Assembly: GCA_964417645.1 (NCBI GenBank)
Contig: CAYQIS010000003.1
Coordinates: 19,568 to 83,567, forward strand
Direction of reading: 5' to 3'
Source: an uncultured Spirochaetia bacterium
GTDB lineage: Bacteria > Oederibacteriota > PGYV01
Length of the DNA: 64,000 bases
Shown piece by piece: positions 1 through 35,088 of this stretch (its first letter is position 1; each line of letters opens with the position of its first letter). A program made the position numbers and the translations under genes. The notes under the pieces were generated by a model, which saw only the letters and a list, made by a program, of their open reading frames with translations, was not told the origin of the DNA and did no database searches.

Positions 1-1
1 G

Positions 2-469
2 CTTTCAGGTTCTTTTATGGTTTATAAAGGTTTTTTTTTGCAGGGCGCTTTAATAATTGCTTTTTCCAGTATTTTTGACATGGTGGACGGCGCTCTTGCA
101 CGAAGGACAAACCAAAAAAGCAGGTTCGGCGGTTTTCTTGACTCAACAACTGACAGGATAAGCGAAGCAGGTATTTTTTTGGCGGTTCTGGCGTTTTACC
201 TGAATGCCGGTGATAAAACAGCCGTAATCTTGTCATATCTGGCAATGTTTCTGGGATTTATGGTAAGCTACCTGCGTGCCCGGGCCGGAGGTCTTAAAAT
301 AGACTGCAGCAGGGGGCTTTTTACAAGACCCGAAAGAATGATTGTCATACTTTTGGGGCTGCTTACAGGATTTGTAAAACCCGCGCTGGCTGTGATTGTT
401 TTCGGTTCTTTGTTTACAGTTATTCAGCGGTTTATGCTTGTCAACGAACAGGCAAAAAATATAAAGTAA
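2..469 (+). CDS. pgsA: CDP-alcohol phosphatidyltransferase (phosphatidylinositol-phosphate synthase-like), 5' end outside window
   Basis: Motif DMVDGALAR...G..LDSTTDR; frame is open back to the window start; lies next to ino1 and patA/pimA-like genes. Confidence 0.85.
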
Positions 470-3570: not shown

Positions 3571-4449
3571 ATGACATATACAACAATTAAATTTGCGGTT
3601 TTTTTAATAACCGCTTTGCCAATAAATTTCATATATTGGATTGCAATTAACATAACACATATATTCTTTTTTTTCTGGAAAGAGAAAAAGATCAACACTG
3701 AAAGCAATTACAAAACCATACTGAAAGATATTCTTGGCAGAGAACCTTTGATTGCAGAAATTAAAAATCTTGCTTTTCAAAACCGTGTTCATTACGGAAA
3801 ATTCAGCGCCGAATTTCTTTATCTTCCAAAGCTTGCAAAAAAGGATATTTTTCCGGATATAACAAATAAGGATTCCATAGACCTTGCGCTTAAAAGAGGC
3901 CGCGGCCTTATTATAGGCACACTGCACTTTTCAAACTGGGACATTGCCGGCATTGTAATATCAAAATATTGCAAAAATGTATGGGCGGTTGCCGATGATT
4001 TGGGCGGAGATTTTTCGCGGTTTGTACAGGAAACCCGCGGAAAATACGGCATAAATATAATACTTCCGAATAAAAATCTTAAAGATGTTTATCGCTGTCT
4101 TGAAAATAACGGTGTTTTAAATGTTCTTATAGACAGGCCGGTTTCTGCCGAAGATAAAAACGGCACCGTTATTGACTTTTTTGGAAAAAAAGCGCGGGTA
4201 ACATCTTTCGCCGCAAGACTTGCCCTTAAAACAGGCGCTGATGTTGCCGTGGGCTGGACAGTAAGAGAAAACGGCAAATTCACCGCCTTTTGTTCGGATA
4301 TAATTAAATATAATGCAACAGGCAACACATCGGAAGACATACGCAATCTTACGCAGCTTATGTTTAAAGAAGCCGAAAAAGCCGTCAGAAAAAATCCGGA
4401 ACAGTGGTACATGTTCAGAAAATTTTTTATTGACCAGGAGACAAAATGA
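3571..4449 (+). CDS. second PatA/LpxL-family acyltransferase
   Basis: LHFSNWDIAG, LIDRP, DFFG, PEQWYMF motifs. Confidence 0.85.
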   Translation: MTYTTIKFAVFLITALPINFIYWIAINITHIFFFFWKEKKINTESNYKTILKDILGREPLIAEIKNLAFQNRVHYGKFSAEFLYLPKLAKKDIFPDITNKDSIDLALKRGRGLIIGTLHFSNWDIAGIVISKYCKNVWAVADDLGGDFSRFVQETRGKYGINIILPNKNLKDVYRCLENNGVLNVLIDRPVSAEDKNGTVIDFFGKKARVTSFAARLALKTGADVAVGWTVRENGKFTAFCSDIIKYNATGNTSEDIRNLTQLMFKEAEKAVRKNPEQWYMFRKFFIDQETK

Positions 4450-5225
4450 AAAAAAGAAAATTTTTTACAGACAGCCCGCCCCACGGACACGCCGTAACAA
4501 AAAATAAAGAAAATATCCGAATAGATTCCTTAAAAGGATACGGAAAGGCGGATATTCATATTCATTCTTCCGCAAGCGATGCCGTTGTGACTCCGGAAGA
4601 AATAGTTGATTATGTTGAAAATAATACGGATCTTAACGTTATAGCAATTACCGACCACGATCAAATAAAAGGCGCAATACGCGCAAGAGAATATGCTCTT
4701 GAAAAAAAATACAATCTGCAGGTTATAGTAGGCGAAGAAGTAAGCACTTTAAAAGGTCATTTAATCGGCTTATTCATAAAAAAAAGAATTAAACGCTATA
4801 CAGGCTTAATTGACACGGTAAAATCAATTCACGAACAGGGTGGAATTGCAATAGTTCCTCATCCTCTTTCATGGCTTACAACATCAGTCGGTGAACAGGC
4901 TTTTAAGTCCGTTATTAAAAATAAAACTCCCGGAGTTTATTTCGACGCAGTTGAATTAATTAATCCGGCCATTGCTGGAAAAGTCACGGATGAACGAGCA
5001 CAAAAATTAAATACAATGCTTTGGAAATTACCCGTAACAGGGGGGTCGGACAGCCATTCATTGGACGGCATTGGCTCCGCTTTTACTTTATTCCCCGGAA
5101 AAACAGAAGAAGATTTACGCAAAGCCATACTTGAAGGCACAACTTTATACGGGGGGAAATACTGGAACTTCAGGGAGCATTGGGATTTATTCGTAAAAAA
5201 ATTCAAACGCTTCAAAGTTTTTTAA
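4446..5225 (+). CDS. PHP-domain phosphoesterase
   Basis: DIHIHS..SD, ITDHD, GEEVST, HP, GGSDSH metal motifs; ATGA overlap with the upstream gene. Confidence 0.9.
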   Translation: MKKRKFFTDSPPHGHAVTKNKENIRIDSLKGYGKADIHIHSSASDAVVTPEEIVDYVENNTDLNVIAITDHDQIKGAIRAREYALEKKYNLQVIVGEEVSTLKGHLIGLFIKKRIKRYTGLIDTVKSIHEQGGIAIVPHPLSWLTTSVGEQAFKSVIKNKTPGVYFDAVELINPAIAGKVTDERAQKLNTMLWKLPVTGGSDSHSLDGIGSAFTLFPGKTEEDLRKAILEGTTLYGGKYWNFREHWDLFVKKFKRFKVF

Positions 5226-5227
5226 AA

Positions 5228-5260
5228 AAAAAGCCCCGCGCGGAAAACGCGGGGCTTTTT
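5228..5260. terminator. bidirectional intrinsic terminator between convergent PHP and pckG
   Basis: AAAAAGCCCCGCG-CGGAAAA-CGCGGGGCTTTTT. Confidence 0.85.
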
Positions 5261-5276
5261 GCTGAAAATATTGTAA

Positions 5277-7127
5277 TTAAAATTGATCAGGTGTTACGTA
5301 ATCACCTTTCGCGGCCTTAAGGTCCAAAAGCCTTTTTTTCTGGGCTTCCAATTCTTCAAATACTTTTTCCGGTGTTCCCTTTACGCCTTTATAAACAGCG
5401 ATTATTCTGTCCATCTTGGCAACATTTTCATTAACACGTATCATAAACTGCTCTTTGTAATCCGCTTCGGTAAAATCCTTGTTCAAAAGCTCCTTAAACA
5501 GTTTTTTAAGTATGTCATACTTCGGTATTATCCCCAGGGGCGTTTTTATGCCGTCAATGTCTCCAGATGCCTTTAGTTCCATCCATTTCAGCCATACTCT
5601 TTTATCCTTTACGCCGTTTAGCCATTTGCCTTCCTTATTTCGCAGGAAATAATTTACACCGAATATTTTAGGCACTGTTTTTAAGCCTTTAGGAAATTCC
5701 AAATAACACTCAAGGTATTTTGCCATGGATATTGAAAGAAACTCCAAATTTGACATTAAATTAAACACTCTGTTGCCTTCCTGCCCAATTGTTGCGGCGG
5801 TTGTTTCGGATTCAAGGGATGCTCCCATTGTTATAACGCCATGGTCCCAATTAAACGCTTCGCATACAGGAACCGAGGTGTTGCTGTCACGGCCGCCGTA
5901 AATTATGCCTTTTAATTCAACACCTTTTTTATTGTGAAGATTTTTGTCGCAGTTTTTGAGTTTTTCAAGACTTATTGAATAGCGGGCATTTTTATGGGCA
6001 TAATCTATGGGTTTACCGGTTGCATCGGTTTTTCCTTTAAACCATTCTCCGGAATAGTTAATTCCCCTTTCAGGTTCTGGCTTTTTATCCCCAAGCCAGC
6101 GTGGAGTTCCGTTTTCATCAAGAACATTTCCAAATATAACATCACCGGGTGTTGTAAGGACCTTGTATATCAAAGGGTCGCCTGCTTCATTTATATCCTG
6201 AATAATTCCGAATATGCCGCGCTCAACATTTGCCGCATGAACTTTGCCGTCTATCTTACGGAGATATGCAAGATCATCTCCAACTATTGTTTCGCCTTCA
6301 ACCATTGCGGTTGAAGTTTTTCCGCACATTGAAGGATACGCTCCCGCAAAATAAGAAACTCTGCCTTTTGGTCCTTTAACCCCCATAATAAACATATGCT
6401 CCGCCAGCCAGCCCTCGCGGGAAGCTTTTTGTATAGCAAGTCTTAAAGCAAGTTTTTTAAAACCTACAGACTGCCCGGCATATTGTGTGTTGCAGCTGTA
6501 AACAGTTTCTGTTTTTAAATCCATATATACGCGGCGGTCGGCAACATTCTTACTGTTCATACGCTCGTCAACTTCACCTGTTGCATGTACAACCTTAAAA
6601 AAGCTTGAAGGTTTTGCTTTTTTAAAGGCCTCATATGCCTTCCTGTAAAGTATGTTTTCCGAATGAACCACATAATATGAATCCGTTATCTGAACTGCCG
6701 GAATGTAAAAAGGCGAATCCGTAGGACCAAGGGAATAAAAAAGCACAAACATATCGCGGCCTTTCATAATCCCTTTCATTTTTGAATAAACATCTTTAAG
6801 CCCTTCCTCCCGGTCAATTCCGTTTAAACCCTCGGGAGCTTCCCCGGGTTCAAAAAGAAATTTTGTGTTTTTAGGGTCTCTTCCCTGATCATAAATTCCG
6901 TCGTGATGTATTGTATGACCTTTTATCTTAAGAGCTTTTTCCTCACCCTTTTCTATGGCCATCTTTTTTGCCATTTCTTCATCAGCTTTGCTGTCATTAA
7001 ATACATATATGCCGTCAGGTTCCAGAAGTTCCGCATATTTTGCCACAAATTCCATAAGAACCGGATTTTTAAGGGCTTCAAGCCTTTTATAACTGTCTTT
7101 TCTGCATTTATTTTTAAGTAATTCCAT
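5277..7127 (-). CDS. pckG: GTP-dependent phosphoenolpyruvate carboxykinase
   Basis: YAG..GFKKLALR, WLAEHM, PSMCGKT, VGDDLA motifs; start moved to the ATG at 7127 behind SD GGAGG. Confidence 0.92.
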   Translation of the reverse strand: MELLKNKCRKDSYKRLEALKNPVLMEFVAKYAELLEPDGIYVFNDSKADEEMAKKMAIEKGEEKALKIKGHTIHHDGIYDQGRDPKNTKFLFEPGEAPEGLNGIDREEGLKDVYSKMKGIMKGRDMFVLFYSLGPTDSPFYIPAVQITDSYYVVHSENILYRKAYEAFKKAKPSSFFKVVHATGEVDERMNSKNVADRRVYMDLKTETVYSCNTQYAGQSVGFKKLALRLAIQKASREGWLAEHMFIMGVKGPKGRVSYFAGAYPSMCGKTSTAMVEGETIVGDDLAYLRKIDGKVHAANVERGIFGIIQDINEAGDPLIYKVLTTPGDVIFGNVLDENGTPRWLGDKKPEPERGINYSGEWFKGKTDATGKPIDYAHKNARYSISLEKLKNCDKNLHNKKGVELKGIIYGGRDSNTSVPVCEAFNWDHGVITMGASLESETTAATIGQEGNRVFNLMSNLEFLSISMAKYLECYLEFPKGLKTVPKIFGVNYFLRNKEGKWLNGVKDKRVWLKWMELKASGDIDGIKTPLGIIPKYDILKKLFKELLNKDFTEADYKEQFMIRVNENVAKMDRIIAVYKGVKGTPEKVFEELEAQKKRLLDLKAAKGDYVTPDQF

Positions 7128-7194
7128 AAATGATCCTCCTGTGGACAAAATTTAAAATATTATCCATTTTTTAATCCATTTTTCAAGGCAATAA

Positions 7195-7728
7195 TTATTC
7201 TTCTATACATGAAAGATCCCCTTCTTCCATATTATAAAAAAGAGGGGCAACAGCAAGGTTTGGATATCTTGTCCTTATCCTTTTAACTTCTGAAATTACA
7301 AAATCAAGTTCATCCCCTATTTCAAATATAGGCGCAAAACTGTCAAAATGCTGTTCGGCTGTTTTTTTCTGCCAGCCGGCTTTTACCAAGCCCTTTATAT
7401 AACTTTCTTTTCTGTTATGAAGACCGCACATACCGCAGTCATCATGGCCTATTATTGCAATTGCCTTAACTTTGCCAACAGCAACAGCATAAGAAATTAT
7501 AAAATCACTGTGTTTCATATTTCCGCCTGCGGTTCTTATTACATAAGCAAAATTATCCGGAACATGCAAAGCTTTTCTGTTGTCCATGCACATTCCAACC
7601 AATATTTCCGCTGATTCATAAGGTCTGCCTTCTTCGGCAAAATTATGATAACGTATCAGTGTTTCCACCGGTGTTCCGATATATTTTTTTGGAATATCGG
7701 TTTCTTTATGAATTTGTATTATTCTCAT
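7195..7728 (-). CDS. beta-class carbonic anhydrase
   Basis: CMDNR and GHDDCG zinc-ligand motifs, RTAGG. Confidence 0.88.
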   Translation of the reverse strand: MRIIQIHKETDIPKKYIGTPVETLIRYHNFAEEGRPYESAEILVGMCMDNRKALHVPDNFAYVIRTAGGNMKHSDFIISYAVAVGKVKAIAIIGHDDCGMCGLHNRKESYIKGLVKAGWQKKTAEQHFDSFAPIFEIGDELDFVISEVKRIRTRYPNLAVAPLFYNMEEGDLSCIEE

Positions 7729-7767
7729 AGCATAACGCTCCGTTTAATCAGTATTTTAGGGAATAAG

Positions 7768-7796
7768 AATATACAAATAAACACAGGATAAGTCAA
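7768..7796 (-). promoter_or_regulatory. sigma70-type promoter of the carbonic anhydrase gene
   Basis: TTGACT-N17-TATATT on the minus strand. Confidence 0.6.
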
Positions 7797-7800
7797 ACAT

Positions 7801-8349
7801 TTAGATTTTATTATTTTTTTTATCCATAAGTATATACTGAGAAGCTTCCCATAAAGTTTCGGTGGTAAAATCCGGCTTTTCCCTTTTTTCATAAAAATGC
7901 TTTGCCCCGTGCCCGGATAAAAGATATATTGTTTTTGTTCCGGCTTTTTTTCCCATATTTATATCATGGGGATGATCGCCTATTACCCAGGATTCTCCAA
8001 GATTTATCGGATTTTCTTCGCAAATTTTTCTGATAAAAAAATCAGAGGGTTTCCTGCATAAGCAATTAACATCTTTTGCATGAGGACAATGAAAAACGCG
8101 ATTTATTTTAATATTTTCTTTTTTAAGGCGCTCCAAAAAATATTTATTAAATTCCATATACTGTTCTTCCGAAAAAAAACCTTCTCCAATGCCTGCCTGA
8201 TTGGTTATCACATACAAATCATAATATTTTTGCAACAAAAAAAGAGCTTTTATTGACCCTTTAATAAATACAAGATCATCTTTTTTATAAATATATCCTC
8301 TGTCTTCAATTATTGTTCCGTCACGGTCCAAAAAAAGAGCGTTTTTCAT
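7801..8349 (-). CDS. HAD-IIIA phosphatase, GmhB/histidinol-phosphatase family
   Basis: FLDRDGTI, TNQAGI, CPH....C.CRKP, IGD..D motifs. Confidence 0.88.
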   Translation of the reverse strand: MKNALFLDRDGTIIEDRGYIYKKDDLVFIKGSIKALFLLQKYYDLYVITNQAGIGEGFFSEEQYMEFNKYFLERLKKENIKINRVFHCPHAKDVNCLCRKPSDFFIRKICEENPINLGESWVIGDHPHDINMGKKAGTKTIYLLSGHGAKHFYEKREKPDFTTETLWEASQYILMDKKNNKI

Positions 8350-9524: not shown

Positions 9525-11384
9525 TTAATTTAAAATACCTGAATAATCTTCAACACTTCCTTTTGATTCAAAACATTCTATTATTTCCATTCCTTTTTTG
9601 GACAGCTGCGGCGTTTTAAATTTTTTAAGCTCCTTGTCAAAAAATTCATACAGCATTTTTTCTCCGAATTGAAATGCTTCTTTACCGACTTCAGGCTGAA
9701 GACTTACATCTATAAGAAAATCAGGAATTGATATTCCCTCAACTTTAAGTTCTTTTCTTATATAACCAAGAAGCGGGGTTCCGGCTTTTTTTAATTCTGA
9801 TTCTTCAAATTTTCTTCCGCCTCTTCTTGCAAGATATTCCCTTACAAACCACTGCGGCATAAAACCTGTTTTCCAGGCGCCTACATATTGATTCGGAAAA
9901 AGAACATTACACGTGTTATTATTTTTTATAAATTGTTCCAGAAGCATGTTGGCGTGTTTAACCGGACTCCCTGTTAAAAACGGACCGTAAGTTCCGATTC
10001 CTTCACTGCTCATTCCTTCGGAACTTATTATGCTTGGATTATCATGTCCGCGGGGCGCAACCAGTCTCCATAACCAAGCCAATGCGGGAGGTAATATGTG
10101 AAAAAAACCTATTATTCCATAAGAAGGATTTTTGGAAGTGCAAGGAGGCGTTCTTATGCCAAAACTTCTGTAGTCTATTGCCGTTTCGGAGTTCTCAATA
10201 TTTGGAATAAGCTCTCTGGGAAAAATCACTCTTGGATTGGGGCATCTTTTTGAAGGCGCGTCTTCAATATGTTCCCAAATAAGGCATGTTGATCCTGCAA
10301 CAGCCTGAATATTAAGAAATATCATGGGCTTTGACGGATGTATGCACATTTTTTCAAAATGAGGATTCATTCCGTAATGTTCAATATGATTTACTCTTAC
10401 AAACCAAGCATTTTCCGCGTCCATTACATGAAGTTTTCCGTCATTTTTTTGTATTGAAGTGTGACAAATTGACATATCATCGGTAACAGGATGTATTTCA
10501 CATTCATTTATAAGTGACGTTTCTATCACCTTTCCGTCAATTATATTCTCGGCAATTCTCATTTTGCTGTTTTCGGTGTGCTCCATATATTCGTTCATCT
10601 CGCTTTTTCCGCCGCCGCTTGCGCCTTCATGAAGTATTGTTATTGAATTATCATAAGGGGTAATAAGTTTTGTTGAAGACGCATGAAGAGTAAGCCATCC
10701 TTCTTTTTCCCCTATGGAAAGAAGCGCCCCATATATGCCTTTTTTTGCGCTTGGCCCCGGATAAAGATTATAGGAAAAAATTTCATAAAGATTTTCTGTT
10801 CTGTTATGAACCACCACCTGTTTTCCTGAAAAATGTGTATGTCTGAACACAGGGGCCAAATATATTATTATTTTTGGAGAAAATTCACGGTTTAAATCCG
10901 CTTCATTCATTAAATTCTGTAAATCAGCAACGGCCATGGCAAAAAAAGCGCAGTTAAGAGGACCAACAAAAAGAGACTGAATTTTTACCGGATCCCTTCC
11001 CGTTATAAAAGGCATTACAATTACATCTGTTTCAGAAAACCATTTAATTGTATCTTTTCTAAAATCAGGAAAATCCATTTTAAACACATCTTTAAATCTT
11101 GGTTTGTCGGATTCAAATTCATCCCCTACAAATGTACAATTTGGATCCCTTCTTCTCATATATGGTTCCTGATAATTTACCGCAACACCGTTTTTACATA
11201 GTGTAACATCGGCTTCCTTAAACTTTTTACCCTGTGATGTTTCGGAAAAAACTTCAAACTGATTCAAACCGTTTCCTGTTGCAAGTTTTATAAGGTCTTC
11301 CCTGCTTTTTGGAAAAACGCAGGATTTTGATTTAAGCAGTGCATCCTTTAATTCTTTTGGTATGTTCCAGTCATTTATACTCAT
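9525..11384 (-). CDS. DUF4914-family protein (PEPCK-like fold)
   Basis: NYQEPYMRRRDP, P-loop HEGASGGGKSE, TDDM, AENAWF, CPNPR motifs; SD GGAGG. Confidence 0.8.
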   Translation of the reverse strand: MSINDWNIPKELKDALLKSKSCVFPKSREDLIKLATGNGLNQFEVFSETSQGKKFKEADVTLCKNGVAVNYQEPYMRRRDPNCTFVGDEFESDKPRFKDVFKMDFPDFRKDTIKWFSETDVIVMPFITGRDPVKIQSLFVGPLNCAFFAMAVADLQNLMNEADLNREFSPKIIIYLAPVFRHTHFSGKQVVVHNRTENLYEIFSYNLYPGPSAKKGIYGALLSIGEKEGWLTLHASSTKLITPYDNSITILHEGASGGGKSEMNEYMEHTENSKMRIAENIIDGKVIETSLINECEIHPVTDDMSICHTSIQKNDGKLHVMDAENAWFVRVNHIEHYGMNPHFEKMCIHPSKPMIFLNIQAVAGSTCLIWEHIEDAPSKRCPNPRVIFPRELIPNIENSETAIDYRSFGIRTPPCTSKNPSYGIIGFFHILPPALAWLWRLVAPRGHDNPSIISSEGMSSEGIGTYGPFLTGSPVKHANMLLEQFIKNNNTCNVLFPNQYVGAWKTGFMPQWFVREYLARRGGRKFEESELKKAGTPLLGYIRKELKVEGISIPDFLIDVSLQPEVGKEAFQFGEKMLYEFFDKELKKFKTPQLSKKGMEIIECFESKGSVEDYSGILN

Positions 11385-17150: not shown

Positions 17151-17474
17151 TTAAAAAATTCCCGGAAAATTTATTCCGCCGGTTATTTTTTTCATTTCTT
17201 CTTCCGCAGTTTCATTTGCTTTATTAAGAGCTTCATTTGCGGCGGCTGTTATCAAATCTTGAATCATTTCAACATCTCCTCCGGAAATAAGCTCTTTATC
17301 TATCTTCACCGAAAGTATTCTTTTGTCACAGCTGGCCGTTACCGTTACCGCCCCTCCGCCGGAAGAAGCTTCAACATTTATATTTTTAAGATTCTCCTGA
17401 ACTTGGGCAAGTTTTGCCTGCATCTGCTGAGCCTGTTTCATAATTTGATTTATATTTCCCATTCCTCTCATCAT
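17151..17474 (-). CDS. ybaB: YbaB/EbfC nucleoid-associated protein
   Basis: MKQAQQMQ, SGGGAV, D.EMIQDLI.AA; dnaX-ybaB-recR synteny. Confidence 0.93.
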   Translation of the reverse strand: MMRGMGNINQIMKQAQQMQAKLAQVQENLKNINVEASSGGGAVTVTASCDKRILSVKIDKELISGGDVEMIQDLITAAANEALNKANETAEEEMKKITGGINFPGIF

Positions 17475-19150
17475 TGTTTGTTACCTCCGGTTTTTTTCAC
17501 CTCAACACTTTTTATCTTAAAAACTTTTCCAAGATTTTTTATTACAGGATTGTTCATTGCTTCTTCCTGTGTAACTTCCTTTTGAATTTGGTATTTTTTT
17601 CTGTATTCATTTTTTTCATAAAAAACAGGCCTTACTTCCGTTTTAAATTCGGAGCTTAAAGCCAGCTTTATGCTTTCCGAATTCTTTTTTAATATACTTA
17701 CCGTAAAAGGATTTTCTCCTATTATCGTAAGAACAGGGGCTTCATATGATACTATTCCCGCTTTTAACAAAGCGCTTTGTGTGTCTTCATCAATCAAATC
17801 TTTTGCTTTTTCGCAAAAACTTTCCCATCTGCGCTCAATTATTTCTTGTGTAAGCTTTTCTATTTTTTCCTCTTCTTCTATTTCAAAAGCAACAAGGCCT
17901 TTTTCATTTTCTGCTTTAATGTCATCCTTTTGCGATCCCTTTTCCTCAATTTCAATTTTACGGTCCAACTGAACATTAAAATTATTTTCTTTTATTTTTT
18001 CCTGTGTTCCGGATTGCGTTTGATTAACTGTTATTGTAACCGTCTTGGGGGCATTAACGGGTCCTGCAACGGCTTCCGCCATAAAAAGTTCAAGAGCAAT
18101 ACCGGGAACAAAACTTTTGCTTACTCTGCTTTCGGCGTCAATGGCTTTTTGGAGCATAAACATAATGTCATTAATATCCGCTTCTTCCGATTCTTTTTTC
18201 ATTATGGAAATATCCGCATCCGTTGCCTGAATAAGGGAAACGTCTCCTGTTGTTTTTAAAACAAGAATATTTCTTAAACGTTCCTGAATGCCGCGGATAA
18301 AATTTCTTATATCATACCCGTTTTGTATTACAGACTCCGCTTCTCTTACGGCCGAAGTAATATCTTTTTTTAAAAAAGCGCTCACTGCAGACTGTATTCT
18401 GTCTGATTCTATTGAACCAAGCATCTCCGCAACAAGCTTTGCGGTAAGTTTTTCTGAACCTGCATATGTCACCGCCTGATCAAAAATTCTCTGCCCGTCT
18501 CTCATCGCGCCATCAGCGGCTTTTGCTATTTCATAAAGAGCTTTTTCCTCATATTGTATGTTCTCTTTTTCTGCTATCATCTTTATATTCTCAATTATTG
18601 TATTTATAGCCGCACGTTTAAATCTGAAATGCTGACAGCGGGAAAGAATCGTCTGGGGGATGTTTTGCGGATCAGTTGTTGCAAGTACAAATATTACATG
18701 CTTTGGCGGTTCTTCAAGAGTCTTTAAAAGTGCATTAAATGCCTCCGTGGTAAGCATATGCACTTCATCAATAATATATACCTTATATTTTCCTCCTGAA
18801 GCCGAAAATCCAACCTGCTCGCGAAGTTCTCTTATTCTGTCAATACCGCGGTTTGAAGCTCCGTCAATTTCAATCACATCCATGGAGCTTCCGTTTTTTA
18901 TTTCCTGGCAAGATGTGCATTTCCCGCAAGGTGTAACTGTTGGCCCTTCCTTGCAATTTAGAGCTTTGGCAAGAACTCTTGCGGTGGTTGTTTTTCCCAC
19001 GCCTCTTGGTCCGGAAAAAATATACGCATGCATAATACGATTTAACTGAATTGCGCGTTTTAAAGGTATTACAACCTGATCCTGTCCCATAATTGCGTCA
19101 AAATCCTGGGGTCTGAACTTTCTGGTAAAAACAAGATAATTTTCGCTCAT
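17471..19150 (-). CDS. dnaX: DNA polymerase III subunit gamma/tau
   Basis: RKFRPQ, GPRGVGKT, IDEVHML, NALLKTLEEPP, SRC; start probably 19150. Confidence 0.96.
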   Translation of the reverse strand: MSENYLVFTRKFRPQDFDAIMGQDQVVIPLKRAIQLNRIMHAYIFSGPRGVGKTTTARVLAKALNCKEGPTVTPCGKCTSCQEIKNGSSMDVIEIDGASNRGIDRIRELREQVGFSASGGKYKVYIIDEVHMLTTEAFNALLKTLEEPPKHVIFVLATTDPQNIPQTILSRCQHFRFKRAAINTIIENIKMIAEKENIQYEEKALYEIAKAADGAMRDGQRIFDQAVTYAGSEKLTAKLVAEMLGSIESDRIQSAVSAFLKKDITSAVREAESVIQNGYDIRNFIRGIQERLRNILVLKTTGDVSLIQATDADISIMKKESEEADINDIMFMLQKAIDAESRVSKSFVPGIALELFMAEAVAGPVNAPKTVTITVNQTQSGTQEKIKENNFNVQLDRKIEIEEKGSQKDDIKAENEKGLVAFEIEEEEKIEKLTQEIIERRWESFCEKAKDLIDEDTQSALLKAGIVSYEAPVLTIIGENPFTVSILKKNSESIKLALSSEFKTEVRPVFYEKNEYRKKYQIQKEVTQEEAMNNPVIKNLGKVFKIKSVEVKKTGGNKQ

Positions 19151-19165
19151 ATTATCCTTTTTCAA

Positions 19166-19253
19166 GGGACACCGGCAACACCCCGGAAAATCCTTTTACC
19201 GCTGCTCCCTTCCGGGCCTGACGGGGTTCAAGGCTGCCGGGTGTGCCGGGCCC
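19166..19253 (-). ncRNA. ffs: small signal recognition particle RNA (4.5S)
   Basis: Minus strand contains the CCGTCAGGCCCGGAAGGGAGCAGCGG domain IV inside a long GC-rich hairpin; canonical position upstream of dnaX. Confidence 0.92.
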
Positions 19254-19257
19254 ATTT

Positions 19258-19968: not shown

Positions 19969-20669
19969 CAGTCGGTAAACCTGTATTTCAATAATGCCCA
20001 AACCGCCTTAAAACCGTCAATTGATTTAATTTTTTTTCCTTCGGCTACCGATCGTCCAAAATAACTTATTGGAACCTCATATATCCTGAAATTTTTTTTA
20101 AGCAGCTTGGCTGTGATTTCCGGTTCAATTTCAAAACCTTTTGATTTTATATCTATTGATTTAATAACATTTGCCCTGAACATTTTATAACAGGTTTCCA
20201 TATCCGTGAGAATTGTATTATAAAGAATATTTGTAATCAAATTTAATACTTTATTGGCTATATAATTAACAAACATAAATGCTCTGTGAGGCCCAAGGAA
20301 CCTTGAACCATATACAACATCCACTTCATTGTGCCTGAAAGTTGCAAGCATTATTTTATAATCTTCCGGATCATATTCAAGATCTGCATCCTGAATAATT
20401 ATAAAATCCCCTTCAGCTTTTGCAATTCCTTCTTTTAATGCGGCGCCTTTACCCGAATTTTTTTCTTTAAGAATAAGTGTGATCCATTTCTGACCAGCAC
20501 ATATTTTTTTTAATTTTTCCCTGGTTCCGTCTGTTGAACAATCATCAACTATTATTAATTTTTTTTCAATCCCCTCAAGCTTTACGGCTTTAACCCTTCT
20601 TATAATTTCTTCTATTGTGGCTTTTTCGTTGTATACGGGCATTACAACACATAAAACCTTTTTTTTCAT
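19968..20669 (-). CDS. GT2 glycosyltransferase (polyprenol-phosphate glycosyltransferase-like)
   Basis: MPVYNE, VDDCSTDGT, GKGAA, QDADLEY, GSRF, TDMETCYK. Confidence 0.9.
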   Translation of the reverse strand: MKKKVLCVVMPVYNEKATIEEIIRRVKAVKLEGIEKKLIIVDDCSTDGTREKLKKICAGQKWITLILKEKNSGKGAALKEGIAKAEGDFIIIQDADLEYDPEDYKIMLATFRHNEVDVVYGSRFLGPHRAFMFVNYIANKVLNLITNILYNTILTDMETCYKMFRANVIKSIDIKSKGFEIEPEITAKLLKKNFRIYEVPISYFGRSVAEGKKIKSIDGFKAVWALLKYRFTD

Positions 20670-22477
20670 TTTAAACTCCTGATTTTTAAAAACTTATATA
20701 TGATATATCCCGCCAATAATGCATAAAAAACGGTTATTATTATTGTTTGAGGCGTAATTTTATCACGATATGTCGGAAAAAGCCACAGCAAATACCCGGC
20801 TTTTGTGCTTATTAATGAATATATTTTATCTTTGGATGCCGCATATCTTAAAAAGGGTAAAATCGAAAGAATTGCCGAAAAAAACACGGAAAACAGTACT
20901 GTTATTTTTACCGTATTATTTTTTTGAAGATTATTTTTTGAAATAAAAACAGCTGCATATACCGCCCATACACAGGCTGCCGGTATCAATTGTCTTGCGG
21001 GAGCCATTGAACCTGTCCAGTCATTCCATACAAGAAACAAACAAAAATAAGGAATTGTAAAATAAAAAGGAAGCAATTCAATATGTTCTTTTTTTGCAGT
21101 CATAAATATGACACCCGTAAAAGACAAAATAAAAACTGGCGAGAAAAAAAACAGGCCATAATCCCTGTCGAAAAATATTGCAAAAAATGCTTTTATGATA
21201 TGAAAAAGATTAAAATCAAAAAAGAAAGATGAACTCACATAAATATTTTTCATTCCTGTAAAAGCAAAAAATCCAAAAATCGAATAATAATAAATAATAT
21301 AAAGAGATATAAAAACAAAAAATATTATATTTAAAAATATTGCCTCTTTTGCATTAAACCGCTTTTTTACAATAACCGCAATAATCCAGGCTGCCCAAAA
21401 AATTCCGGAAAAAACAAACATTTTCGGATGCAGCCAAACAAGAAATCCTGTGCAGATAAAAAAAATAATGTCAGATTTTATTTCTTTCTTTTCACCTCTA
21501 AAAATATCTCTTATAAAAAAAGCGCAATAAACAACAGCACACGCCGATGGCATTTCGGTAAGTATAAGTGAAGCGCCTGCGGAAAAAGGTATGATAACCG
21601 AAGTGATTATTGCCGAAGCAGCGGCTGTTTTTTCGTCAGAACCGGATGATATTGATGCTTTAAAAATAAGCACAGCCAAAATTGCAGCAAAAAACGCAAT
21701 TAAAAACTGGGCTCCGTATCTTCCTGCAATCATATAAGGAATTGAAATAAGCAGTGAAATACCCGGATTGTGTATTGAATATATTCCTTTTCCGTTTTTC
21801 CCCGCAGTATTGTGAATATTTTTATATTCAAGTTCGGAAGGATAAAAATTTCTGTATGTTTTTTCAAAAACATAATCATTCTCAAGGTTCATATCATGAT
21901 CTTTTACAAGGCTCTGAGCCATTAAAAGATAATGCGGCTCGTCGCCTGTCGGCGGATAAATAAATGTGTTATAAATCCCGGAAATCAATCCAAATATAAA
22001 AACCGAAATAAAAATAAATTTAGCGGAAAAAGCCGATGAATCCGCGGCTTCTTTTGCCAGCATAAGCATAAACACAAACAAAGGGAAAATAACAGCCGCT
22101 CCCGCACTTAAAAGAGCCGAATAAGAATCCATATTAAGTGAAACAAAACCGGTTTTAAAAAAACTTATGTTTCCAAGCATGCTGAATTTAATCAAAGATA
22201 ATTTACCGCCGTAAATTAAAGAAAAAACAATAAAAGGCAATGCAAAAAATGATGAAACTGTTATTAACCGGGATGCGCCTTTATTTTTTAAAAAAATATA
22301 TTTTTCGGCAATTAAAGAAAAAAGTAAAAAAATCAAGCTTGTTATAATTCCAAATACGGCAATATATCCGGAAGAAATATTCAATCCCGGAAATTTTGAT
22401 ACAGCATAATATATTGCAATTCCGGTAAAAAAACCTGCAGATGCGGAAATTGAAAAATTATTTTTTCTTATTTGCAT
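20666..22477 (-). CDS. polytopic membrane protein, GT-C/PMT-like glycosyltransferase
   Basis: Many TM segments; GDEPHY loop motif; next to a GT2; start moved to 22477. Confidence 0.7.
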   Translation of the reverse strand: MQIRKNNFSISASAGFFTGIAIYYAVSKFPGLNISSGYIAVFGIITSLIFLLFSLIAEKYIFLKNKGASRLITVSSFFALPFIVFSLIYGGKLSLIKFSMLGNISFFKTGFVSLNMDSYSALLSAGAAVIFPLFVFMLMLAKEAADSSAFSAKFIFISVFIFGLISGIYNTFIYPPTGDEPHYLLMAQSLVKDHDMNLENDYVFEKTYRNFYPSELEYKNIHNTAGKNGKGIYSIHNPGISLLISIPYMIAGRYGAQFLIAFFAAILAVLIFKASISSGSDEKTAAASAIITSVIIPFSAGASLILTEMPSACAVVYCAFFIRDIFRGEKKEIKSDIIFFICTGFLVWLHPKMFVFSGIFWAAWIIAVIVKKRFNAKEAIFLNIIFFVFISLYIIYYYSIFGFFAFTGMKNIYVSSSFFFDFNLFHIIKAFFAIFFDRDYGLFFFSPVFILSFTGVIFMTAKKEHIELLPFYFTIPYFCLFLVWNDWTGSMAPARQLIPAACVWAVYAAVFISKNNLQKNNTVKITVLFSVFFSAILSILPFLRYAASKDKIYSLISTKAGYLLWLFPTYRDKITPQTIIITVFYALLAGYIIYKFLKIRSLK

Positions 22478-23150
22478 TTTTCTCCCTGAACCAGCTCTGC
22501 GGCCTGGAAGATAACACATAAACTTTTACATTTTTCTTTCTTCCCCAATTAAGCGCTTCCTGTGTGGTATTATAACAAAGATCTATCCTATTTCCTTTAA
22601 TAGCGCCGCCTGTATCGCCTGTCCATGCAAAACCATAACCTTCAACATAAATTAAAGATCTTAAAGCTATTACTTTAGGGTCAACAGCGGCTATTCCGTG
22701 CCTTGTACGCCATCCAAGTTTTGTAATACCCGCCCAATTTAGCGTGTTATCTTCCGGAGAACTGTCATAAGCCGTTGCTTCCATCTTATGAACAAATTGA
22801 GCGTAAGTAACTTTCGGAACCGTTACGGGATTTTTTTTATTTGATATGCCTTTTAACATAAAACCCTGAACAGGTTTTTTTATAATTTTTGATTCATATA
22901 ATTTTATGCTTTTTATTTTATTTTTTCCCAATAAATATTCTTTATAAACAGAATTTCTGTAACCGTCTTCGCCTTCTTTCAGCCAAACTTCCCATCCTTT
23001 TTCAATAAAATTGCTTTTTTTTATTAACGGCTGTATCGTTATTGATTCTTTTTTTACAATGTTTCTTTCGTTAATCATTACTGCCGTAAAGCAAAAAGAA
23101 AACCAAATACAAACAAAAAAACCTACAATTAAATTAAAAATTTTTGTCAT
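22458..23150 (-). CDS. 3D-domain cell-wall enzyme (membrane-anchored)
   Basis: ATAY, IAAVDPKVI, GDTGGAIKGNRIDL. Confidence 0.88.
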   Translation of the reverse strand: MTKIFNLIVGFFVCIWFSFCFTAVMINERNIVKKESITIQPLIKKSNFIEKGWEVWLKEGEDGYRNSVYKEYLLGKNKIKSIKLYESKIIKKPVQGFMLKGISNKKNPVTVPKVTYAQFVHKMEATAYDSSPEDNTLNWAGITKLGWRTRHGIAAVDPKVIALRSLIYVEGYGFAWTGDTGGAIKGNRIDLCYNTTQEALNWGRKKNVKVYVLSSRPQSWFREKNANKKK

Positions 23151-25542: not shown

Positions 25543-28486
<2,944 letters not shown>

Positions 28487-32589: not shown

Positions 32590-35088
32590 TTATTCCGTTT
32601 CTTCTTCGTCTTCTTTTTCCGCAACACGAGCAACAGCGCTTACGCGTTCTCCTTCTTTCATCTTAATAAGCCTTACACCCTGTGTATTTCTGCCTATTGT
32701 TTTTATATCTTTTATTTTTGTTCTTATTAAAGTTCCGCTGGTTGTAATTATCATAAGCTCATTTGTGTCATCAACAAGTTTTATATCTATAACATTGCCT
32801 GTTTTTTCGGTCACTTTCATATTTATAAGACCTTTTCCACCTCTTGATTGTTCCCTGTATTCGCTTATCTCAGTCCTTTTTCCAAAACCCAATTCTGTCA
32901 CGGTCAATAAAGTTAAATTTTTCTGTCCTGCGGGAAGTATGGTAACTCCCACGACAACATCTTTCTTGTCAAGATTTATTCCGCGTACACCCATTCCCGT
33001 TCTTCCGACTTCTCTGAAATCTTTAACTTTGCTTCTGATTGCCATTCCTTCAAGAGTTGCTATAAATATTTCGTCATTTTCGCCGGCAATTTTTGTATCT
33101 ATTAAAGTGTCATCATCATTAAGTGTTATCGCTATAATTCCCCCGCTTCTCGGGTTGCTGAACAAAGACAATCTTGACCGTTTAATTAAGCCTTTTCTTG
33201 TGCTCATTATAAGAAATTTATCTTCGGAAAAATTCTTTACGGAAACATAAGAAGCTATTTTTTCCCCTTCCTCAAGTTTAATCAAATTGACTATTGCTTT
33301 GCCCTTTGTCTGTCTTGCGGCTTCAGGAATTTCATAAACTTTAAGCCAGTGACATTTTCCTTTATTTGTAAAGAATAAAATATATTCATGTGTGTTCGAA
33401 ATAAACAGATCTTCCACAAAATCTTCATCTTTTGTTGCCATTGCCATAATTCCGCGGCCTCCGCGTTTTTGCGCTTTATAAGTGCTTACGGCCGTTCTTT
33501 TAATAAAACCGTTATGTGAAATTGTGACAACCATGTCTTCTTCCTGTATTAAATCTTCAACGCTTACTTCTTTTTCTTTTTCTATTATCTGTGTCCTTCT
33601 TTCGTCCGCAAATTTATTCTTTACTTCAAGAAGTTCCTCTGCCATAAGTTCAAATATTTTCTTTTCACTTGCCAGCAATGATTTTAATTTTTCTATTAAT
33701 TTAATCAGCTCTTTGTATTCATTTTCAATTTTCTCCACTTCAAGGGAAGTAAGCTGTTTTAATGTCATGTCAAGAATTGCCTGAGCCTGAACAGGGGTTA
33801 ATTTAAAAGCTTCAATTAAAGCCTGTTTGGCTGTTTCGGTGTTTTCGGATGCCCTGATTATTTTTATCACTTTATCAAGATATTTAAGCGCAATTTTTAA
33901 TCCTTCCAATATATGCGCTCGGCGTTCGGCTTTATCAAGCTCGAATTTTGTTCTTCTTATAATGACTTCTTTTCTGAACGCAATAAAATTTTCTATCAGT
34001 TCTTTTATATTTAAAATTTTTGGCTTTCCGTTTACAATTGCAAGAAAAATAATTCCAAATGTTGTTCTAAGCGCCGTATGTTTATAAAGCTGATTTAATA
34101 TTATTTCAGGATTGTCATTTCTGCTTACCTCTATTACAGCCCTTATTCCTTCTTTGTCCGATTCGTCCCTTAAATCCGTTATACCGTCTATTTTTTTATC
34201 CCTTACAAGTTCGGAAATATTTTCAAGAAGCTGCGCTTTATTCACCATAAACGGAAGTTCGGTTATTACAATTTGTTTTTTTCCTTTTTTTGTTTCTTCA
34301 ATTTTTGCTTTGGCCTGCATTGTAACGGAGCCTTTGCCTGTTGTATAAGCCTGTTTTATGCCTTCTCTGCCTATTATATAGCCCGCTGTCGGAAAATCAG
34401 GGCCTTTAATATATTGAAGCAGTTCTTCGGGTTTAATATTTCTTTCCCTGTTTTTTATAAAATAAACCACAGCATCAATTACTTCGCCAAGATTATGCGG
34501 GGGAATATTCGTTGCCATTCCAACGGCAATTCCCGCGCTTCCATTTACAAGAAGATGCGGAAAAGTCACCGGAAGAACGGACGGTTCTTTGTTTGACTCA
34601 TCGTATGTGGGAATAAAATCCACTGTATTTTTGTCTATACCCTGCACAAGTTCTTCTGCTATCTTTGACATCCTGGCTTCCGTATAACGCATGGCTGCAG
34701 GGGGGTCTCCGTCAACCGATCCAAAATTACCCTGCCCGTCAATCAGCGGCATCCTGAAAGAAAAATCCTGCGCCATTCTTACCATTGTGTCGTAGATTGA
34801 TGAATCACCGTGAGGGTGATAATTACCCATTACTTCACCGACTATTTTAGCCGATTTTCTGTAAGGCTTATTATGAAGAAGTCCCATGTCATATAAGCCG
34901 TAAATTATTCTTCTTTGAACCGGTTTTAACCCGTCGCGAACATCCGGCAAAGCACGTCCTACAATAACGCTCATTGAATAATCAAGATAAGAGGTCTTCA
35001 TCTCCTCTTCTATTGAAGCCTGGATAATTTTTCCGTGTATTTCCTGATCAGGTATTAAATTATTTTCTTTATTGTTCTCGTCCATCAT
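32590..35088 (-). CDS. gyrA: DNA gyrase subunit A
   Basis: [29 protein letters not shown], GyrA-box QKRGGRG, acidic tail. Confidence 0.97.

Follow-up and report, generated by a model that had tools for sequence, protein, structure and literature searches.

In every bacterial or archaeal pathway that makes inositol lipids via phosphatidylinositol phosphate (PIP), the phosphate has to be taken off again to give phosphatidylinositol (PI), and we know of an enzyme for this step in Bacteroides only. There, genetic work identified the PgpA-family protein BT_1525 of Bacteroides thetaiotaomicron as the enzyme that dephosphorylates PIP: its knockout accumulates PIP (Heaver et al. 2022, PMC9246714). 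The Mycobacterium tuberculosis enzyme was described as 'yet-unidentified' in 2019 (PMC6506517), and in July 2026 the mycobacterial phosphatase was still called 'long-sought', with EphE proposed as a candidate (10.64898/2026.07.15.738315). The premise of the initial annotation of the locus studied here—that the PIP phosphatase is not firmly assigned—holds for mycobacteria, where the enzyme is still being sought, and not for B. thetaiotaomicron. We analysed a 64,000-nucleotide stretch of DNA (the window) from an uncultured Spirochaetia bacterium, in which an inositol-lipid operon ends on a gene for a metallophosphoesterase of the PHP superfamily, and asked whether this protein might be the PIP phosphatase of its pathway.

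The PHP gene is the final member of a six-gene operon of the PI/PIM type, which reads PIP synthase (PIPS), INO1, acyltransferase (AT), GT4, acyltransferase, PHP (Table 1). All six genes lie on one strand and are separated by intergenic gaps of at most 16 nt or overlap one another. The first of them begins 128 nt before the window (at L003:9873), and the PIPSynth model NF045883 gives the part inside the window 123 bits and the entire gene 149 bits. The model that recognised the first acyltransferase, NF005919, describes PIM acyltransferases, and the glycosyltransferase matches PimA (2gej) over its full length with 142 bits, as against 51–65 bits for MshA. A modelled complex of this glycosyltransferase with the PHP protein, built from alignments of 24 rows, scored 0.15 (mark 0.32), a value to which we give no weight in either direction.

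Table 1 Features of the PI/PIM-type operon in the window
Feature	Position	Strand	Basis
PIP synthase (CDP-alcohol phosphatidyltransferase), 3′ part; 198 aa whole	1..469	+	NF045883, Pfam CDP-OH_P_transf
ino1, myo-inositol-3-phosphate synthase, 359 aa	486..1565	+	TIGR03450 (573 bits), PF01658
PatA-like acyltransferase 1, 287 aa	1565..2428	+	NF005919 (137.7 bits); top PDB match PatA 5f2t/5oce
PimA-like GT4 glycosyltransferase, 374 aa	2441..3565	+	M. smegmatis PimA 2gej match
PatA-like acyltransferase 2, 292 aa	3571..4449	+	PF03279; top PDB match PatA; stop overlaps PHP start
PHP/PHP_C metallophosphoesterase, candidate PIP phosphatase, 259 aa	4446..5225	+	Domain models, homologs, model fold
Terminator hairpin between operon and convergent PEPCK gene	5228..5260	.	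Fold energy; A-run and U-run flanks

At the 3′ end of the operon, the ATG of the PHP gene shares an ATGA with the TGA of the preceding acyltransferase frame (4447–4449). A GGAG sits 7 nt upstream of this ATG, and we found no alternative start codon 5′ of the catalytic core. The gene is followed by a hairpin that folds at −22.9 kcal/mol (z −3.9) and has a U-run behind it; a scan for consensus terminators did not pick it up, and folding revealed it. The next gene, encoding PEPCK, runs towards the operon. Translational coupling of the PHP gene and its place at the end of a PI/PIM operon, both proposed by the initial annotation, are thus confirmed by the start/stop overlap, the terminator hairpin, and the convergent neighbour. 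With the remaining five genes assigned, PHP is the sole hydrolase or phosphoesterase in the cluster. The genome that carries the operon is low in GC.

To our knowledge, every characterised member of the PIP synthase family makes PIP. When aligned to PgsA1 of M. tuberculosis, the enzyme of the window keeps the signature aspartates along with R95, S132, R152, and R155, and its R186—the arginine of a C-terminal QR—aligns with the Renibacterium enzyme; R95, S132, R152, R155, and R186 are the equivalents of the residues that hold the phosphate of inositol phosphate in PgsA1. In the latter protein a sulfate bound at these positions shows where the phosphate of D-myo-inositol 3-phosphate lies, and its R94 is conserved among inositol-phosphate-using enzymes (PMC6506517). 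As the PIP synthase of the window, being of the inositol-phosphate type, retains these phosphate-binding residues, the product of the operon should be PIP and a dephosphorylation would be needed.

The product of ORF 4446–5225 is a member of the PHP superfamily: it passes the Pfam gathering thresholds of both PHP (PF02811; 33.1 bits vs 26.4) and PHP_C (PF13263; 43.8 bits vs 21.3). Its family is large, with 1397 homolog clusters at E ≤ 1e−3, the nearest of them 85% identical, and at least 566 matches among species-representative genomes. Nine residues (H38, H40, D45, H71, E98, H105, H139, D202, and H204) show no variation across 81 homologs linked to such clusters; in alignments they coincide with the HxH, D, DHD, E, H, HP, and SDxH motifs found in RNase AM, Cv1693, and BAD_1165, whose structures are solved. 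With all nine His/Asp/Glu ligands present, the predicted trinuclear metal site looks intact, in agreement with what had been read from the window at the outset. Three further residues, T61, S142, and N189, do not change within the clade of cluster-linked proteins but do so in its sister groups; no basic residue reaches 90% conservation in this clade.

The protein has neither a signal peptide nor a hydrophobic segment. Its chain closes with a basic helix (242–259), and the last 30 residues are cationic in the family, with a median net charge of +4.5 over 120 homologs. We considered this tail as a membrane anchor; its hydrophobic moment does not exceed that of internal helices, so it is suggestive only. 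An AlphaFold model computed with 17 homologs (pLDDT 84.9, pTM 0.84; residues 1–23 disordered) predicts a distorted (beta/alpha)7 PHP barrel, and comparison of this model with ten solved PHP proteins gave Z scores of 17–21.6; a Foldseek search gave E-values down to 1e−11. Closest were BVU_3505 (Z 21.6), TM0559 (20.7), and BAD_1165 (20.1), followed by PsfC, RNase AM (18.2–18.6), EndoQ, and Cv1693 (17.1). Those of the solved relatives that have been characterised work on nucleotides or nucleic acids, and a lipid substrate is on record for none of the set.

Within the superfamily, the protein falls below the cut-off of each characterised subfamily model. The equivalogs for RNase AM (NF047791; 57.8 vs 375 bits) and for 3′,5′-nucleoside bisphosphate (pAp) phosphatase (NF041577; 56.4 vs 400 bits) match residues 34–114 of the protein alone. 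HisK-type histidinol-phosphate phosphatase (NF004981) scores 22.4 vs 117 bits, and the histidinol-phosphate phosphatase folds 2yxo, 3dcp, and 4gyf reach a Z of merely 8.3–8.9 to the model. The score for the CehA/McbA metallohydrolases (NF038032) lies slightly below the cut-off, at 75.2 vs 80 bits. A PgpA domain (PF04608) was not matched in the protein.

Conserved linkage of this PHP subfamily to inositol-lipid genes had been set beforehand as a test of the proposed function. Using tblastn, we mapped the remaining five proteins of the operon around the best 80 of the at least 566 PHP loci, over a span of 8 kb, and found the linkage upheld: in 79 of the 80, PHP shares its strand with one or more PI/PIM genes, the exception being a contig of 3.2 kb. 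A PIPS gene lies within the span in 70, and a contig edge cuts short most of the ten loci without one. Going by the NCBI record names—which are partly unreliable for metagenome-assembled genomes—the 80 loci cover about ten phyla (Chloroflexota, Thermomicrobiota, Dormiibacterota, Eiseniibacteriota, Acidobacteriota, Methylomirabilota, FCPU426, Goldbacteria, 'Spirochaetia', and Actinomycetota). Two gene orders recur. Relatives of the window share its PIPS-INO1-AT-GT4-AT-PHP (11 complete and two partial loci); the other order is INO1-AT-AT-PHP-GT4-PIPS, together with shortened versions, among them INO1-PHP-GT4-PIPS and PHP-GT4-PIPS. In this second order, the steady neighbours of PHP are the lipid-handling PimA-like GT4 and PIPS rather than Ino1, and ten loci have PHP beside GT4 and PIPS with no INO1 within 8 kb. 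In a tree of 93 PHP sequences, the 79 linked ones, including that of the window, form one clade (SH-aLRT 83), and two unlinked groups fall outside it.

One member of an unlinked sister group is a GT4-PHP fusion (P0121), the single clear fusion that we encountered; its contig of 3.9 kb carries no PI genes. Some PHP matches in high-GC Chloroflexota lie in long open frames of 554–693 aa, which also had the appearance of fusions. None was counted as such: in the three that we examined (653, 663, and 606 aa) the N-terminal 350–400 residues matched no Pfam domain and did not resemble any protein of the operon.

Not every PI cluster has a PHP gene. Among 201 Chloroflexota genomes, searched with a PHP cut-off of E ≤ 1e−30, a PIPS-like gene occurs in 198 and a PHP match in 143. 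In 44, a high-scoring PHP match lies 1–4.5 kb from the PIPS match, while low-scoring matches (130–180 bits) lie megabases away from PIPS; 58 genomes have a PIPS-like gene and no PHP match at this cut-off. Small Dehalococcoidia genomes carry a bare INO1-GT4-PIPS between housekeeping genes (purA and truB or GNAT genes). The phylum of the window comprises only 99 species genomes, which are relatives of one another, so that the counts are descriptive and do not amount to a statistical test. PHP was present in 43 and a PIPS-like gene in 54, with 40 genomes having both; the three with PHP only are fragmented assemblies or have PHP at a contig end, and 14 are PIPS-positive without PHP. No PHP gene was found in the roughly 40 genomes of families without a PIPS-like gene (f12–f16, f18, f19, f23, and most of f11 and f17). 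In the order to which the window belongs, 19 genomes have both genes, two have neither, and three are discordant, all of these being fragmented assemblies. The PHP of family f22 is a paralog of 38% identity that belongs to an unlinked group; in this family PIPS-INO1 adjoins the LPS genes lptB/lptA/lptC/lpxL/kdsC/kdsD. With many PI clusters lacking it, the PHP gene is dispensable, and no substitute phosphatase was found inside those PHP-less clusters that we examined (small Dehalococcoidia and family f22).

The genome of the window encodes other phosphatases elsewhere that could in principle convert PIP to PI, namely one PgpA, three PAP2 proteins, and one protein of the IMPase family. Its only pgpA gene (G000:C27), on a separate contig, overlaps pgsA by 4 nt. 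By analogy, this pgsA-pgpA pair parallels PIPS and PHP and suggests an arrangement of one dedicated phosphatase per phosphatidyltransferase. The nearest PAP2 gene was considered as the PIP phosphatase and set aside: it lies 4.7 kb upstream in a divergent proA-nadD operon. PgpA, this PAP2 protein, and the IMPase-family gene are all less well placed for the reaction than PHP. Two further cluster-bearing genomes that we checked, including a complete chromosome from Dehalococcoidia, showed no PgpA homolog.

Given these observations, we infer that ORF 4446–5225 encodes a candidate PIP phosphatase, a reading to which we give a probability of roughly 55%. The PIP synthase of the operon would make phosphatidylinositol 3-phosphate, from which a cytoplasmic phosphomonoesterase of the PHP fold with three metal ions would strip the 3-phosphate; the resulting PI would feed the adjoining PimA-like mannosyltransferase and the PatA-like acyltransferases. 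The chemistry has a possible analogy in Cv1693, the closest relative of characterised activity, which takes the ring 3′-phosphate off pAp, adjacent to a second phosphoryl group. The suggestion of the initial annotation that the enzyme removes the phosphate of PIP is thereby backed by the linkage, by the residues of the PIP synthase, and by the place of PHP as sole phosphoesterase of the cluster, and is weakened by the many PI clusters without it. A literature search for PHP enzymes in connection with PIP, PIM, or phosphatidylinositol, of incomplete coverage, returned nothing relevant. The broader proposition—that the linked clade is the first lipid-headgroup phosphatase of the PHP superfamily, a peripheral cytoplasmic PI3P 3-phosphatase of Chloroflexota and about nine other phyla by record name—strikes us as evenly balanced.

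Three other readings have to be weighed. PIP might be dephosphorylated by another enzyme (PgpA, PAP2, or other), with PHP serving instead as a phosphodiesterase that turns over or remodels lipids, or hydrolysing nucleotides or nanoRNA as its relatives do. The dispensability of PHP in many PI clusters speaks for this, as do the PgpA and the three PAP2 genes of the genome and the fact that some members of the superfamily, RNase AM and EndoQ for example, are diesterases or nucleases. However, the PgpA is translationally coupled to pgsA and the nearest PAP2 gene belongs to the divergent operon described above, 4.7 kb away, the RNase AM and pAp phosphatase equivalogs are far from being reached, and a housekeeping nucleotide role would leave unexplained why the linked clade stays in PI clusters across gene orders and some ten record-named phyla. 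We hold this division of labour to be unlikely. An action of PHP later in the same pathway, on a mannosyl-PIP after the PimA-like step or in freeing the inositol 3-OH before the second PatA-like acylation, appears a little less likely again. It would suit the position of PHP, which in the widespread gene order directly precedes the PimA-like GT4 and in the window follows the second acyltransferase, and it could draw on the GT4-PHP fusion of the sister group. Yet the gene is kept in clusters without any acyltransferase (INO1-PHP-GT4-PIPS and PHP-GT4-PIPS), the contig of the fusion is devoid of PI genes, and the substrate of the characterised PimA is PI.

Finally, PHP could be a soluble inositol-phosphate phosphatase that releases free inositol from the Ino1 product, be it for an inositol-using PI synthase or for other use. 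PHP enzymes are typically small-molecule phosphomonoesterases (histidinol phosphatase, pAp phosphatase), and PHP and ino1 share an operon. Such a phosphatase would vie with PIPS for its substrate, though, and the phosphatidyltransferase keeps the phosphate-binding arginines of inositol-phosphate users; moreover, the genome has a gene of the IMPase family at another site, and the ten loci that combine PHP, GT4, and PIPS lack INO1 nearby. We regard this as the least probable of the alternatives, and improbable in itself.

Were PHP indeed the PIP phosphatase, a function would be at hand for a large family annotated merely as 'PHP domain-containing protein' or 'TrpH', and the superfamily would be extended to lipid substrates. 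It would also help to read how PI/PIM-like glycolipids are made in Chloroflexota and in several candidate phyla, some of them apparently diderm; as it is, a PHP-fold candidate accompanies PI pathway genes in hundreds of species. Even then the mycobacterial enzyme would not thereby be identified, and PHP would belong to a subset of the PI-making bacteria. Neither Corynebacterium glutamicum nor B. thetaiotaomicron encodes a PHP_C protein, despite their PIPS-like genes, and because C. glutamicum has none, the enzyme still missing in actinobacteria cannot belong to this PHP family. If the reading is true, PHP would be a further non-orthologous solution, alongside the PgpA-type enzyme of Bacteroides and that of actinobacteria.

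How does the candidate compare with known systems? With BT_1525 it would share the reaction, PIP to PI, and it does share a gene cluster with PIP synthase and inositol-phosphate synthase. Fold and family are unrelated, and BT_1525 has genetic proof where PHP is known from sequence and context; in this reading, PHP would be the non-orthologous counterpart of the Bacteroides enzyme. The PI-PIM locus of mycobacteria and corynebacteria (pgsA1 Rv2612c, patA Rv2611c, pimA Rv2610c, plus ino1) has the same set of enzymes as the operon of the window but no PHP gene, whereas the operon has two acyltransferases and resides in a non-actinobacterial genome. Among PHP proteins, RNase AM (7ug9, 9etk) and Cv1693 (2yb1), of the TrpH/YciV branch, combine the PHP barrel with PHP_C and carry the same metal-ligand motifs. 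To RNase AM and Cv1693 the similarity amounts to a Z of 17–18.6 at 25–27% identity, with a sequence alignment that covers just the first ~80 residues and a length of 259 vs ~290 aa; those enzymes act on nucleotides or RNA and have another genomic context. The uncharacterised PHP phosphoesterases TM0559 (2anu) and BVU_3505 (3e38), the closest in fold, superpose over 191–204 residues (rmsd 2.7–3.0, 22% identity), and the alignment stops at about residue 240, leaving out the basic helix. A precedent is offered by the phosphatidylglycerophosphate phosphatases PgpA, PgpB, and PgpC, unrelated families for one lipid-headgroup dephosphorylation, and the pgsA-pgpA pair of this genome mirrors PIPS and PHP; the substrate of these phosphatases is another and so are their folds. 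Beside these systems, PHP stands as a well-linked and mechanistically sensible candidate for a new fold class in the PIP phosphatase reaction.

The operon carries two genes for PatA-like acyltransferases, and two acyltransferases per cluster also occur in many Chloroflexota, which suggests that its product is a PIM-like lipid with double acylation. To our knowledge, no enzyme has been assigned to the acylation of the inositol 3-OH in mycobacteria.

Inositol-lipid genes were also found in clusters that lack PHP. Small Dehalococcoidia genomes (L099, L101–L103, L106) harbor a minimal INO1-GT4-PIPS cluster, devoid of both PHP and acyltransferase and flanked by purA, truB, and GNAT genes. In f22, a family within the window's own phylum, PIPS-INO1 adjoins an S1/P1 nuclease gene together with lptB, lptA, lptC, lpxL, kdsC, and kdsD (locus L088); the inositol-lipid genes of this diderm lineage are therefore embedded in an LPS locus.

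PHP has two sister groups unlinked to PI clusters (33–39% identity; L085 [G069:C5], L087 [G054:C4], and L110–L119), one of which co-occurs with PIPS in the same f22 genomes, albeit on different contigs. P0121, a member of an unlinked sister group encoded on a Logan contig of 3931 bp, is a natural GT4-PHP fusion of 628 aa; its neighbors are PhoU and an HTH regulator, with no adjoining PI genes.

Downstream of the operon, the opposite strand (window 5277–8349) carries genes for a GTP-dependent PEPCK and a GmhB-like heptose bisphosphate phosphatase, along with a weakly matching beta-carbonic-anhydrase-like ORF. Further along lies a replication-gene neighborhood (17471–37812), in which dnaX, the SRP RNA, gyrB, gyrA, and dnaA are all minus-strand genes. 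The origin of the chromosome probably lies near 38–40 kb. A 617-aa ORF within this region (20666–22519, minus strand) had no Pfam match.

Coordinates of features in the window and at two other loci
Feature	Position	Strand	Remark
PatA-like acyltransferase	1565-2428
PatA-like acyltransferase	3571-4449
GTP-dependent PEPCK	within 5277-8349	-
Beta-carbonic-anhydrase-like ORF	within 5277-8349	-	weak, 31 bits
GmhB-like heptose bisphosphate phosphatase	within 5277-8349	-
DUF4914 protein	9525-11384	-	619 aa, 895 bits
dnaX	17471-19165	-
SRP RNA	19159-19257	-	70 bits
gyrB	25543-28164	-
gyrA	32590-35088	-
dnaA	36472-37812	-
PIPS-INO1 and neighbors (f22)	L088:7631-15500
pgsA and pgpA	G000:C27:6148-7265 (= L108:1477-2594)

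On another contig of the window's own genome, canonical pgsA (207 aa) and the sole pgpA of the genome (165 aa) overlap by 4 nt; the arrangement of this PG synthesis pair mirrors that of PIPS and PHP.
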